Source: a virus
Taxonomy: Duplodnaviria; Heunggongvirae; Uroviricota; Caudoviricetes
DNA length: 64,000 nt
Reading direction: 5' to 3' (one strand)
Virus record (IMG/VR): IMGVR_UViG_3300017989_002952
Coordinates: 18,891 to 82,890 of that record
The position numbers and the translations under genes are program-made. The notes under the pieces were generated by a model. That model did not search any database. It was not told the origin of the DNA and saw nothing but the letters and a program-made list of their open reading frames with translations. How positions within the stretch are numbered: the first letter of the stretch is position 1; each line of letters opens with the position of its first letter. This document shows positions 7,093 to 59,300 of the stretch, one piece after another.

Positions 7093-7464
7093 CTATTCCC
7101 ATTCGACGGGATCATCTTCTACTACTTCAAATTTTACGACTTCAAGACCAACGGGTCCAAGATCATAATAAAACCGCATACCTTTCAAGAAACTGTCGAT
7201 TAGAAGCCACCTTATATATTCAGGGATATCTCGCTGGTCGTTGAACATACTGGTCCATTCCTCAATTTGAAAGAAACGTGAACCAGTTTTCTTGATATTT
7301 GAAGCATCCCAGAATCTAAGATCGGGAAACTCAGAGCGACGTCGCTCTAAGAACTCATTAAAAAGAGTTTTGAACTCCTCCACTGTTAAATCCTCGCTTG
7401 ACTTGATTGAAAGAATAAAACTAGCAGAGGAACTATTCGTAACTTCGGATACTCGGAATTTCAT
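7093..7464 (-). CDS. member 1 of MKF[RK]xSEVTNSSSTSF N-terminal-tag family
   Basis: Starts MKFRVSEVTNSSSASF (ATG at 7464, GGAG RBS). The longer ORF to 7494 is probably read-through from an upstream Met. Overlaps the 3' end of the upstream radical-SAM gene. Confidence 0.55.
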   Translation of the reverse strand: MKFRVSEVTNSSSASFILSIKSSEDLTVEEFKTLFNEFLERRRSEFPDLRFWDASNIKKTGSRFFQIEEWTSMFNDQRDIPEYIRWLLIDSFLKGMRFYYDLGPVGLEVVKFEVVEDDPVEWE

Positions 7465-8578
7465 CGTGTTTTTGGATCTCCCCGAGCACCTCAAGCGGGC
7501 AACAATAGTTATTTTCTCTCAATATTTTTCTGAATAAATTAAAAGGTTCACTATTCGCCCACACGTCTTTCATTGTCCGTCTTAAGTGCTTACCTGGTTT
7601 AAGAGTTATACCATGGTTGACATGGTCGCCTATTGAACACGGAACTAATCTGAGGTCAGGAGTGATGTAACAAGATTTTCTACCTGCGCAACAGAAATCA
7701 AAAGTAATTTTCTCAAATGAACTCAGTTCGCCGTATTGTGTGATGACGTGCTTACCAAGACATGGGTCCATACCTGCTACAAATTTTCTGAGATCTTGGT
7801 GTTTCATGGCTTCAGCAAATATTTTAAATTCGTTGTTATTAAGCCTCCAAAGCTTCTCAGGTTTGTTTCTACCGCACCCCTGTGGTTTATACAACAGGAA
7901 CGTGACCCCAAACAACTTGTCTAAATCAATCTTACCATCCCAAACGTCTTTTCCGTGTAGCATATCAACAGCTTTAGGAAAAGAAAGTTTGTCCAAGACT
8001 AGTTGTATGCTGGTTTTAACATTCGCCTTCATAAGTCTGTTCAGTGCTGAGTAGGTTTCTGGTTGACCATAATCACTAACCGCAACACTTGGGCAGTATT
8101 TTTTGGCGGTAGTTATCTGTTCATCTGTTAAACGAAATCCGCTCGTTGTAAATGTAGGTGCAATGTTATTCTTTCGACAGAAAGCAACCATTCTTTCAAA
8201 ATCAGGATGGTCATTTGGATCGCCTCTTCCGCCAAGAGCACATTGTGTGATATATGGAGCAGATTGTTTAATGACTACTTTAAAATCGTCAAAAGACATA
8301 TGAGGTTCTTTTTTCCGACCCTGATAACAGTTCTCGCAGCCATTTTGACAGTGTCCCATGACACCAATATCTAACAGAGAAGGAAATTCAAGACCAAAAG
8401 GCTCGGTATGATCTCCTAAACCCTCAAGAATCTCATGTCCATTCATAGCGTTAAACAAAATAACATATGTTTCCTTTGAATTCACTATCACTTTTGTCCA
8501 CAGTTGCCGTGAAAGCGAGTGTTGTTCTTCTGTCCACGAACTCTTGTTGATGTTTAGCGGAATTTTTTTAATCTTCAT
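7433..8578 (-). CDS. radical SAM enzyme with Cys-rich C-terminal (SPASM/twitch-like) region
   Basis: CX3CX2C = HCQNGCENCY; GGRGDP resembles the GGE SAM-binding motif; C-terminal CCAGRKSC...VPC cysteine cluster. Confidence 0.65.
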   Translation of the reverse strand: MKIKKIPLNINKSSWTEEQHSLSRQLWTKVIVNSKETYVILFNAMNGHEILEGLGDHTEPFGLEFPSLLDIGVMGHCQNGCENCYQGRKKEPHMSFDDFKVVIKQSAPYITQCALGGRGDPNDHPDFERMVAFCRKNNIAPTFTTSGFRLTDEQITTAKKYCPSVAVSDYGQPETYSALNRLMKANVKTSIQLVLDKLSFPKAVDMLHGKDVWDGKIDLDKLFGVTFLLYKPQGCGRNKPEKLWRLNNNEFKIFAEAMKHQDLRKFVAGMDPCLGKHVITQYGELSSFEKITFDFCCAGRKSCYITPDLRLVPCSIGDHVNHGITLKPGKHLRRTMKDVWANSEPFNLFRKILRENNYCCPLEVLGEIQKHDEIPSIRSYE

Positions 8579-8590
8579 AAACCACCCTTT

Positions 8591-9163
8591 CTATTTATTA
8601 CACCATTCCCATGAATGACATAGAATTTGATCTCCATTGTCTAGGTGCAGACAAACATCAATAAGATGACTACTTCCATCATGAGCCATCATACCAAATG
8701 TATATCCGTTGCCCAACATAGACAAATCAATTTTGTCTGGTCGGAGTGGACTAGGTAAATATTCCTTATCATCATTGAACATTTTGTACCACTCCCGAAC
8801 CGCATTGCTATTTGTCCATATTCTGCGAGTTATACCAGTCTCATCGTTTACAACATGGTCCGGTAAATATGGTTTAAAAGATCTTACCATAATAACAATA
8901 GGCACGAGCGACCAGAACCGGAGTCTAGAGTATGGACATTCATATCTGCAATTTTCTTCAATTTGTTGCGTATTTTCAATACCCGCAGCTCTAAGAGCAC
9001 GCCATCCATTAGATTCAAAATGTGAAATCGAAAACAACTTGCTCTTTTCAAACAAGTTTCTGTCAAATGGAGCCAACCATTTTGAAACTCCATACACATC
9101 TATATCCGCACAACTAGGAACATAATGTTTCTTAGGGATTATGATTTTCATTTTTATCTCCAA
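8591..9163 (-). CDS. hypothetical protein (190 aa)
   Basis: ORF immediately upstream of the radical SAM gene in the same operon. Confidence 0.4.
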   Translation of the reverse strand: MEIKMKIIIPKKHYVPSCADIDVYGVSKWLAPFDRNLFEKSKLFSISHFESNGWRALRAAGIENTQQIEENCRYECPYSRLRFWSLVPIVIMVRSFKPYLPDHVVNDETGITRRIWTNSNAVREWYKMFNDDKEYLPSPLRPDKIDLSMLGNGYTFGMMAHDGSSHLIDVCLHLDNGDQILCHSWEWCNK

Positions 9164-9581
9164 AAAGAGGAATGAGTTTACCAGGCTCCTTCTTTACTCT
9201 TTCTTCTGGCTCTGCTGTGATTATGTCCATGAACGGAGCCACCCACATTGATCTACCGCCCATTGTAAATGTTTCCAACCCACATGCTTGTTCTTGTCTG
9301 AGTTGCCACTTAACTCGCTGAGGTCCTTCTGGTGACTCAGGAAAAACAACTGTGTAAATCCACCAATCTTTTTTCTGGTCTGGTTCGATCGCCACAACCC
9401 TGGCATGTTGAATAGCTGCAACAGTTCTCTTATCACCAGTCGCAGGATCCTCCATTTCCGTTTCTCTCATCACGAATAAAAAACTTCCTACGTTTGTCAT
9501 TGTGTCAAAAATAAACGTCGTCTTTAACTTCTTAATATAAATCTCCAGATCTAACATAGAAACAGCCTCCTTTTCATACAA
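9132..9581 (-). CDS. hypothetical protein (149 aa)
   Basis: ORF with GGAGG RBS. First gene of a minus-strand operon, divergent from the 9694 gene. Confidence 0.4.
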   Translation of the reverse strand: MYEKEAVSMLDLEIYIKKLKTTFIFDTMTNVGSFLFVMRETEMEDPATGDKRTVAAIQHARVVAIEPDQKKDWWIYTVVFPESPEGPQRVKWQLRQEQACGLETFTMGGRSMWVAPFMDIITAEPEERVKKEPGKLIPLFGDKNENHNP

Positions 9582-9693
9582 ACAGTCCTTCTAATGAGTA
9601 ATATATATAAGTATTTTGTTCATTCAAAACTAATCCGTCCTGTTCATATACTTAGAACAAATTATAAAGTTTACTAGTGCGGAGTTCAAACTA

Positions 9694-57850: not shown

Positions 57851-58418
57851 TCAAAGCACTCCTTTCTCGTTCTCTTCTCATATTTTGTAACCACTTTCTA
57901 GCTGTGTATCTTGTACCGTTCCTATAATCCAAAACTTGCTCTCTCACCTGTTTGATGGATAATGGTGTAAAATTATGCATGTCCACTCCAACATTCAGAC
58001 AGTTTCTCTGCATATAAAATAGAGTGTGTATATGCCCGCAAAGAAACCACTTATCCACCCATACCTGAGAAAGAGCCGGATCATGGACACATATGAATTC
58101 TTCAACTTCAAAATATGGAGCATGAACAGACCAAAACCCCAATTCTGTCCAAAACCACGGATCTTTCACATCATGGTTCCCCATAATCAAATGTAATCGA
58201 CCTTTTAATTTCCTCACATATTGTTCGATTTGTCCTCGATGACTTTTCGTCATCATTGTAAAATCTCCCAAGATATAAACGTCATCATTATCATCAACCA
58301 CACGGTTATGATTTTTAATAATAACACTATCCATATGTCGAGTCTGTCTAAAAGGACGATCACAACTTTCTATAATTCCATGGTGTCCTAAATGATAATC
58401 TGCTGTGAAAAACTTCAT
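57843..58418 (-). CDS. calcineurin-like metallophosphoesterase
   Basis: Motifs in order: ADYHLGH (DxH), ILGDF (GD), GNHD, CGHIH (GHxH). 191 aa. Confidence 0.6.
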   Translation of the reverse strand: MKFFTADYHLGHHGIIESCDRPFRQTRHMDSVIIKNHNRVVDDNDDVYILGDFTMMTKSHRGQIEQYVRKLKGRLHLIMGNHDVKDPWFWTELGFWSVHAPYFEVEEFICVHDPALSQVWVDKWFLCGHIHTLFYMQRNCLNVGVDMHNFTPLSIKQVREQVLDYRNGTRYTARKWLQNMRRERERSALNG

Positions 58419-58421
58419 TGT

Positions 58422-58757
58422 TTACCTCGGTGGTTGTATTCTAAATCTCCTTCTGTCTGGTTGGTCTTCTTCGCCTGTCTCCAACCACTGCACTTGTTTG
58501 AACGGAACGCTACGCCAATCTTGTTTTTCAAGATCATAGACATTGATAATTCCGTGTTTGTGCAATCGCTCGAGAATTTTAGCCACATTCACATCTTTCG
58601 GTTTCCTCGCTAACGGGACATACTGAAAATTGAGAGTGCATTTCATTGTCCTCTCAGTCCCATCTTTTTTCACAAATTTAATGGTTACCTTGTCTTCCTC
58701 CTTTACTTTTTGAAAGAACGCTGTTGCGCTCGTTATTACATCATCTGGAGTTGCCAT
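58422..58757 (-). CDS. hypothetical protein (111 aa)
   Basis: ORF with GGAGG RBS. Confidence 0.4.
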   Translation of the reverse strand: MATPDDVITSATAFFQKVKEEDKVTIKFVKKDGTERTMKCTLNFQYVPLARKPKDVNVAKILERLHKHGIINVYDLEKQDWRSVPFKQVQWLETGEEDQPDRRRFRIQPPR

Positions 58758-58772
58758 TTGTTCTTTCCTCCG

Positions 58773-59300
58773 TTACCTATTTTGCTCCGTAACTATTACA
58801 AAGTCTGGTTCATCAATTCGAATTTTTCGACCCTCATAGTCCATTGTGGTTCCAACACGACCACCTGATATTTCACCGTCGTTGTCTCCAAAACCAATTT
58901 TTAGAAATGATGTCAATCCTTTCTCTTTTGCACTCTCAAGAAGAGCAATCTTTTCTTGGATTCCCGTAACAATTCTTTTGACCCAACCATCCTCTCTAAA
59001 TGATACATCATTTTTCCAAGAATCAAGATCAGATTTAAGTTCTTGAATACCTTCGTCAATTTTCCTAATTTCGGGTCTAATCCATAATTGTTCTGAATTG
59101 CTCTTAACTACTTGATCCAACGCCCTGATGACATCCCATACATGGATATCATAAACCTCTTCATTAAATAATTCATAGTGAAGCTTAAAATGTTCTTTAT
59201 ACTTCACCAGTAATTCGTATAGATTGTAGATATCTCCTTTAAATGCCATCAAAAACGACGTTGAAGATGAGTTCGTTACTTCACTTGCTCGAAATTTCAT
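58773..59300 (-). CDS. member 4 of MKF[RK]xSEVTNSSSTSF N-terminal-tag family
   Basis: Starts MKFRASEVTNSSSTSF with a GAGGAG RBS. Its start overlaps the stop of the radical SAM/SPASM gene (ATGA). Confidence 0.55.
   Translation of the reverse strand: MKFRASEVTNSSSTSFLMAFKGDIYNLYELLVKYKEHFKLHYELFNEEVYDIHVWDVIRALDQVVKSNSEQLWIRPEIRKIDEGIQELKSDLDSWKNDVSFREDGWVKRIVTGIQEKIALLESAKEKGLTSFLKIGFGDNDGEISGGRVGTTMDYEGRKIRIDEPDFVIVTEQNR

Follow-up and report, generated by a model that had tools for sequence, protein, structure and literature searches.

Four small acidic proteins of an uncultivated phage start with nearly the same peptide and are otherwise unrelated, which raises the question of what this peptide does and what reads it. 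They are encoded in a stretch of 64,000 nucleotides (positions 18,891 to 82,890 of the IMG/VR virus record IMGVR_UViG_3300017989_002952), here referred to as the window. The source phage is a myovirus of ~183 kb with sheath, tube-like, baseplate, tape-measure and large terminase genes. The shared peptide is a modular N-terminal tag that is selected at the protein level, and between the tagged genes and the gene of one radical S-adenosylmethionine (SAM) enzyme, rSAM1, the linkage is tight and reciprocal. From these sequence comparisons we would give roughly even chances to the reading in which the tag is a leader or a modification site for rSAM1, which would apply to whole proteins the logic of peptides that are made on ribosomes and modified after translation (RiPPs).

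The shared N-terminal tag and its cargo

The four open reading frames (ORFs) that the first-pass annotation had reported were all found on the minus strand and where it had placed them. The part of each protein that follows the tag is called cargo here, and its types are lettered.

7093-7464, minus strand: m1, 123 residues, N-terminus MKFRVSEVTNSSSASF, cargo type B
32656-33036, minus strand: m2, 126 residues, N-terminus MKFRMSEVTNSSSTSF, cargo type D, C-terminus ...IIRGEGGY
35473-35856, minus strand: m3, 127 residues, GTG start, N-terminus MKFKMTEVTNSSSTSF, cargo type C, C-terminus ...IEECWEDR
58773-59300, minus strand: m4, 175 residues, N-terminus MKFRASEVTNSSSTSF, cargo type A

The common start, MKF[RK]x[ST]EVTNSSS[TA]SF, is present in all four proteins, and a six-frame scan with a regular expression found it nowhere else in the window; a synthetic version of the tag would read MKFRVSEVTNSSSASFILSI. 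The reported acidity also holds, with isoelectric points of 4.2-5.1 and net charges of -7 to -17. AGGAG-like Shine-Dalgarno sequences are found upstream of m2, m3 and m4, and m1 has a weaker one (GGGGAG, 13 nt upstream). After removal of the first 20 residues, hhalign comparisons among the four orthologous groups gave probabilities of 0.1-1.2%. There is no tag-free profile similarity between types A-D and therefore the N-terminus alone is common to them, as had been proposed.

The first-pass annotation also argued for selection on the peptide itself and against a duplicated DNA segment, and the codons bear this out. Over the 48 nt of the tag the pairwise identity among m1-m4 is 54-79% in nucleotides vs 69-94% in amino acids, and in each pair 5-10 of the 11-15 codons for identical residues differ. 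These differences include serine switches between AGY and TCN codons, which are not interconvertible by any single mutation. A feature acting at the DNA or RNA level, a recent duplication or gene conversion could be invoked instead of a functional peptide, and the often tandem arrangement of the tagged genes could favour recombination. With such low nucleotide identity, many synonymous changes and serine switches, and with the same peptide kept across 15,010 protein clusters (see below), this explanation is extremely improbable; as origins of the tag, a DNA repeat and a recent duplication were ruled out by the codon analysis.

The description as a four-member family was far too narrow. The contig (183,522 bp) carries at least five members, the fifth being P0038 (type E, 144 residues, starting with MKFRASEVTNSSSTSF), which is encoded outside the window. 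Furthermore, a 30-column profile made from the tag only matched in metagenomes, at E<=0.001, 15,010 representatives of clusters at 50% identity, nearly all of them at residues 1-30 of proteins of 40-290 residues, and at least 30 cargo types were distinguished. The search for further tagged proteins that the annotation had suggested has thus uncovered a very large family, with rSAM1 co-occurring at most loci. No Pfam domain was found in the 120 profile matches that were scanned, and m1-m4 gave nothing significant in Pfam, PHROGs or NCBIfam. A description of the tag family was not found in a literature search and the family appears to be undescribed. An IMG/VR scan with a DNA pattern for the SEV variant of the window gave 0 matches. 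Some database proteins (P0074-P0082, P0093, P0094 and P0113) had two tag matches each in the representative search, one of them internal, and probably represent either a pair of neighbouring tagged genes taken for one ORF or a genuine fusion.

The consensus drawn from 120 unique tags reads M-K-[IVL]-K-x-D-F-[VI]-T-N-S-S-S-x-x-[FY], with four hydrophobic residues after it. Conservation in these tags reaches 100% for T9, N10, S11 and S12 and 99% for S13. Position 7 is Phe in 111/120 and Glu in 2/120, both from the window lineage. Glu7, which had been called invariant, is therefore so within the lineage of the window phage only, and more than 90% of the family has Phe at this position. The form found in that lineage is MK[FY][RK]x[ST]EVTNSSS, in which [ST]EV is a variant common to all its paralogs.

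The cargo, on the other hand, is very diverse. A profile search of a large protein collection returned 73 relatives, and each of m1-m4 belongs to a separate orthologous group that is kept in related phages. Type A proteins (m4) have ~170-190 residues and the C-terminal motifs GFGDNxGE, MDYEGR and TEQNR (alignment of 61 sequences). Those of type B (m1) have ~113-123 residues and include the orthologs P0003, P0016 and P0020 plus loci members; Ala at tag position 14 is specific to this type. The C-terminus is ...IEECWxDG in type C (m3; alignment of 22 proteins) and ...GEGGY in type D (m2), which has orthologs in loci L006, L008-L012 and L015. BLAST clustering without the first 20 residues separated at least 10 unrelated groups in a first member set, and when the set was enlarged to 187 unique members of 69 genomes, 32 cargo clusters resulted. 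Roles in host takeover or anti-defence are a guess from the size, acidity and diversity of the cargo.

The tag is predicted to be unstructured. In the AlphaFold2 model of type A (predicted local distance difference test, pLDDT, 90.3; predicted template modelling score, pTM, 0.84) residues 1-11 are below pLDDT 50, in that of type C (pLDDT 86.5) residues 1-12, and in either model residue 13 opens beta strand 1. In addition, one cargo type has tagless homologs of 143 residues (MLTLMFVALP...), whose first residue falls exactly where the tag ends. These are encoded directly after rSAM1 at three loci.

L066, 1689-2120: tagless homolog
L073, 1542-1973: tagless homolog
L106, 9009-9440: tagless homolog

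The unstructured tag in the two models and the tagless homologs indicate a modular, exposed appendage that is no part of a shared fold. That the tag could be a piece of a common fold or active site was ruled out by these two observations together with the unrelated cargo profiles. Fold searches with the type A and type C models gave no informative match.

Linkage of the tagged genes to rSAM1

The first-pass annotation described two radical-SAM/SPASM enzymes in the window and proposed that each is paired with a tagged protein as its substrate.

7433-8578, minus strand: rSAM1, a radical-SAM enzyme of 381 residues, whose gene is the conserved partner of the tag family
59297-60373, minus strand: rSAM2, a radical-SAM enzyme of 349-358 residues with the motif CNLRCEYC

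The overlaps on which this proposal was based are real, m1 running 32 nt into the 3' end of rSAM1 and m4 4 nt (ATGA) into that of rSAM2. To follow the synteny from the enzyme to the tag we used the best 80 IMG/VR loci with rSAM1 homologs (39-54% identity; IMG/VR has 190 homologs), which together with the window make 81 loci. Tagged genes are present in 74 of them, with up to 6 per locus. They are located downstream of rSAM1 and on the same strand in 136 out of 140 cases, and 34 are at most 100 nt from its stop codon, the distance often being no more than 30 nt. The next-best conserved neighbour family is found in 29/81 loci, so that the tagged family alone reaches 74/81, and no conserved protease, exporter or small partner gene was found beside rSAM1 in this sample. 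In the opposite direction, 118 IMG/VR stretches were found by a DNA pattern of the tag alone, and rSAM1 was upstream on the same strand in 53 of the 77 informative loci. A more distant rSAM1 homolog (35% identity) on L108, a contig from a metagenome-assembled genome (MAG), is followed by four tagged genes. The scan of genome contigs found rSAM1 on four MAG contigs only, which are probably binned phage DNA and therefore give no host information. Because the tagged genes usually sit directly behind rSAM1, the tag may well be a recognition or modification site for this enzyme.

rSAM1 belongs to the radical SAM superfamily (PF04055 Radical_SAM, 32.0 bits, cutoff 29.5), and the Cys residues of its CxxxCxxC motif (C77, C81 and C84) are invariant in the 81 homologs. 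Its assignment to the SPASM enzymes is less straightforward. We took as SPASM a set of seven C-terminal Cys (Cx9-15Gx4C ... Cx2Cx5Cx3C ... C) plus a match to PF13186. In rSAM1 the match is borderline (22.7 bits, cutoff 21.5), the invariant C-terminal Cys are just four (C273, C296, C314 and C360), and Cx2Cx5Cx3C is absent in the same homologs. This pattern suggests a single auxiliary Fe-S cluster, twitch-like or of a partial SPASM kind. The closest named NCBIfam families (tungsten-cofactor oxidoreductase maturase, MftC, PqqE and WgkB) are peptide or protein maturases, all of them weak matches, and the PDB matches (SkfB and PqqE) are weak as well. At one locus, L011 (IMGVR_UViG_3300033145_000526, 7031-8873), the rSAM1 homolog was recovered as two tblastn pieces (residues 36-168 and 175-366) with a gap of ~900 bp, which hints at an insertion (an intron, an intein or a homing-endonuclease gene, for instance).

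The second enzyme has no similarity to rSAM1. It is a member of the radical SAM superfamily (Pfam Radical_SAM, 46.9 bits) and has a PapB-type NCBIfam match over residues 14-331 (E=6e-12), and Pfam gave no PF13186 SPASM match. Of the two radical-SAM/SPASM enzymes that had been described, both are thus radical-SAM proteins, the SPASM match being borderline in rSAM1 and missing in rSAM2, which has the PapB-type match. rSAM2 is part of a conserved module SbcC / rSAM2 / WYL_2 / metallophosphatase, in which the gene for the WYL_2 (Sm-like SH3) protein of 101-111 residues follows rSAM2 in all lineages.

58422-58757, minus strand: WYL_2 protein of the window
L103, 7029-7337: WYL_2 protein
L104, 7041-7346: WYL_2 protein

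In the window lineage tagged genes have been inserted between the two. Only in this lineage (the window and L005/L102) is a tagged gene found directly behind rSAM2. In the rSAM2 homologs of two other lineages a WYL_2-like gene is directly next; in one of them (L103 and L105) a tagged gene is found two genes upstream, and in the other (L104) the region inspected has no tagged gene. From the contexts in L103-L105 it follows that the pairing of m4 with rSAM2 is not general. The proposed pairing of enzyme and substrate therefore keeps strong genomic support for rSAM1, in both directions of the comparison; for rSAM2 it is largely limited to the window lineage.

What may read the tag

The tags of one genome tend to change together. 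Nine members are known from the window lineage (m1-m4, P0038, three in L005, and P0003/L022), covering six cargo types, and all nine have [ST]6-E7-V8; the members outside this lineage have D6-F7. The cargo types are orthologous across lineages and therefore the change in the tag arose in parallel in all the paralogs. Recent gene conversion is excluded by the different codons used at position 6 in the window lineage (TCC, AGT and ACG). Other genomes are uniform in their own way, with DHI in both L050 members, DFITNSSSSSF in 4/4 of L108 and GFVS in both of L020, and tag positions 14-15 track the cargo type. We take the concerted change, as far as it can be followed in these sequences, as evidence for a common reader that would act in trans. 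The rSAM1 of the SEV lineage has 11 departures from the 85-100% consensus, including D104, N142, G163, Y133, N190 and K267, which is a lead and not a test since it comes from one lineage only. A possible covariation of tag Glu7 with the rSAM1 residue after CYQG (Arg in the window) was rejected; this position varies freely and is Phe in L022.

The mechanism that we propose would work as follows. Large uncultivated myoviruses would fuse the tag to many unrelated small acidic proteins as a detachable address, with ~12 flexible residues and then an aromatic residue that opens the first beta strand of the next domain. A single phage enzyme, rSAM1, would read the tag in trans by binding the exposed peptide, and would most likely modify the T-N-S-S-S box or its immediate surroundings. 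One enzyme would in this way have many substrates, carrying the leader logic of RiPPs to whole folded proteins, and the same rSAM1 would also serve m2, m3, the fifth member and probably m4. We infer both the physical recognition by rSAM1 and the modification of the tag from the reciprocal linkage, the modularity and accessibility of the tag, the invariance of TNSSS and the concerted change within genomes, a combination that leaves us about evenly divided on this reading. The more specific proposal that the enzyme covalently modifies the invariant T-N-S-S-S box on unrelated folded effectors, in a type of modification not yet described, is tentative and falls somewhat short of an even chance.

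Several observations weigh against rSAM1 as the reader. All the support is genomic, and synteny among related phages can mirror ancestry and not function. As substrates, folded proteins of 90-200 residues would be unusual for maturases of the RiPP type. The tag lacks the Cys, Trp, Lys or Tyr pair of characterised SPASM cross-linkers, so that no known chemistry maps onto TNSSS. In rSAM1 itself Pfam found no PqqD or RiPP recognition element (RRE) domain at E<=1, and there is one set only of Cys for an auxiliary cluster. An upstream rSAM1 is missing in 24 of the 77 informative tag loci, which hold dispersed members like m2 and m3; L001 and L021 have a tagged A+B pair with no rSAM1 within 10 kb, and in L066, L073 and L106 rSAM1 is followed by the tagless homolog only. 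Finally, the uniformity within genomes is modest, with an identity at tag positions 3-8 of 0.67 within a genome vs 0.585 between genomes for members of different cargo types.

Some of these facts would also suit a short linear motif that docks to another hub of the host or the phage (a chaperone, a protease, a polymerase or a compartment import machine), or one that serves oligomerisation by strand exchange, with no modification by a radical-SAM enzyme. The tag is a flexible, exposed and modular element, many members are encoded at a distance from rSAM1, the A+B pairs have no rSAM gene within 10 kb, and the covariation within genomes shows a shared partner, which need not be rSAM1. However, rSAM1 is the sole consistently co-located gene and no candidate hub was found. 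Docking motifs usually depend on hydrophobic anchors, for which the invariant polar T-N-S-S-S core would be atypical, and TNSSS fits a reaction site better. Docking is an unlikely, although not a negligible, explanation.

A variant closer to our proposal is a classical leader, in which rSAM1 would bind the tag for recognition only, and the modification would take place in the variable cargo or the tag would be cleaved later. The synteny with rSAM1 would be the same, and single maturases that serve many precursors are known, as in the prochlorosins, where one maturase acts on many precursors with a conserved leader and hypervariable cores. Nevertheless, the cargo is confidently predicted to be folded and has no shared target residue, the cluster has no conserved gene for a protease or an exporter, and TNSSS is more invariant than leaders typically are. 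We consider this variant very unlikely.

The first-pass annotation had offered another possibility, a capsid-targeting signal. The tag would send the acidic proteins into the prohead core, where the prohead protease would trim them for co-injection with the DNA, and the radical-SAM enzyme would be unrelated or accessory. The capsid-targeting sequence (CTS) of T4 is MKTYQEFIAE and the site of the T4 prohead protease is L/I-x-E. The resemblance of this CTS to the tag is limited to MK. Glu7 had been seen as compatible with a protease site, a role for which it fails, being lineage-specific; the 120 tags have no conserved Glu or Asp at a P1-like position preceded by a hydrophobic P3, and Phe occupies position 7 of the general tag. 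The architecture is nonetheless similar, since the T4 internal proteins (IPI, IPII, IPIII and Alt) also consist of a short conserved N-terminal peptide on diverse, unrelated and fast-evolving small proteins, several per genome (PMC3012670), and here too the phage is a large myovirus. The sheath and tube genes flank the main cluster, m2 lies just upstream of what may be a head module, the tag is exposed in the AlphaFold2 models, and the covariation within genomes suits any shared reader, a scaffold or a protease included. On the other hand, the cluster and the structural genes around it are on opposite strands, and capsid targeting would leave unexplained the tight linkage to a radical-SAM partner found in 74/81 loci, which the T4 internal proteins lack. 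Capsid targeting seems to us quite unlikely.

Carriers, neighbouring genes and known systems

By blastn and tblastn the cultured phages gave no real match to the window region or to m4. One cultured carrier of the system is Vibrio phage D479 (OZ195776.1, 257 kb; L111, 63056-74063). Its tagged protein, VPHD479_0110 (132 residues, N-terminus MKIRNGFVSNSSSSSF), is encoded 1.4 kb upstream of the rSAM1 homolog VPHD479_0104 (25% identity). Directly after the rSAM gene of this phage, on the opposite strand, there is an annotated homing endonuclease. Full-length radical-SAM proteins ~24% identical to rSAM1 are present in 170 records of cultured phages, which for the most part are T4-like and come from Klebsiella, Enterobacter, Cronobacter and Citrobacter. 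The one locus inspected, in Cronobacter phage vB_CsaM_leE (L110, 92684-93835), has no tagged neighbours of the radical-SAM gene, and the T4-like enterobacterial phages were not counted as carriers.

The following neighbouring genes and other features were recorded.

6055-7077, minus strand (in L001, 10866-11921): a protein of 340-351 residues immediately downstream of the type B member, C-terminus ...LPRGS[ST]LR.E.DGTI.IS, no family match
31331-32653 and 33017-33523, minus strand: the flanks of m2, with an HD_4-like gene and a 440-residue protein that matches phrog_11908 (unknown function; E=3e-73)
43509-46541 and 47019-49727, minus strand: phage-encoded unsplit RNA polymerase subunits, a beta-like one of 1010 residues (Rpb2 domains 3, 6 and 7) and a beta'-like one of 902 residues (Rpb1 domains 1-5)

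The dispersed member m2 has the HD-domain gene on one side and an SPFH-like gene on the other. L021 has the HD_4-like gene next to a gene for 442 residues, close in size to the 440-residue one, with no tagged gene between them, and there the same pair of beta-like and beta'-like RNA polymerase subunits is present.

Among the closest known systems is RiPP biosynthesis (ProcM-type logic and radical-SAM/SPASM maturases such as PqqE, MftC, SkfB and PapB). Here 1-6 co-directional genes come after that of a radical-SAM enzyme with an auxiliary-cluster domain, their products have a conserved N-terminal peptide and a hypervariable remainder, and the weak best matches of rSAM1 are peptide maturases. 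The differences are also clear. What would be the precursors are not short peptides but folded acidic proteins of 90-200 residues and at least 30 cargo types, no RRE or PqqD was found (Pfam E<=1; no conserved small partner) and neither was a conserved protease or exporter. The most invariant part, TNSSS, resembles a target and not a leader, rSAM1 has four C-terminal Cys only, and the system is viral.

Radical-SAM enzymes of the SPASM type that act on proteins are known. anSME converts Ser or Cys to formylglycine in a Ser-containing motif near the N-terminus of the protein, and QhpD acts on QhpC, recognised via an N-terminal leader. Action on a protein and not on a small peptide, which is proposed for rSAM1, would be the point in common. 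In contrast, the sulfatase motif (C/S)-x-(P/A)-x-R is absent from the tag consensus, rSAM1 has no sequence relationship to these enzymes beyond general radical-SAM similarity, and the unrelated substrates would be many here vs one.

If the tag is a recognition or modification site for rSAM1, it defines a very large unannotated family of ~15,000 clusters at 50% identity. It would then reveal a new mode of viral protein maturation, in which one enzyme processes many unrelated proteins via a portable 13-residue tag, and would extend leader-guided RiPP chemistry to proteins in thousands of uncultivated large phages. Should the tag instead be a packaging signal, it would still represent a new and widely distributed capsid-targeting system. 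With both components present in a cultured phage, Vibrio phage D479, the question is open to bench work. Recognition or modification by rSAM1 would also provide concrete hypotheses for phage genes called 'hypothetical', in their thousands, perhaps a new reaction of radical-SAM enzymes on Ser or Asn, and a potentially useful orthogonal system for tagging proteins.

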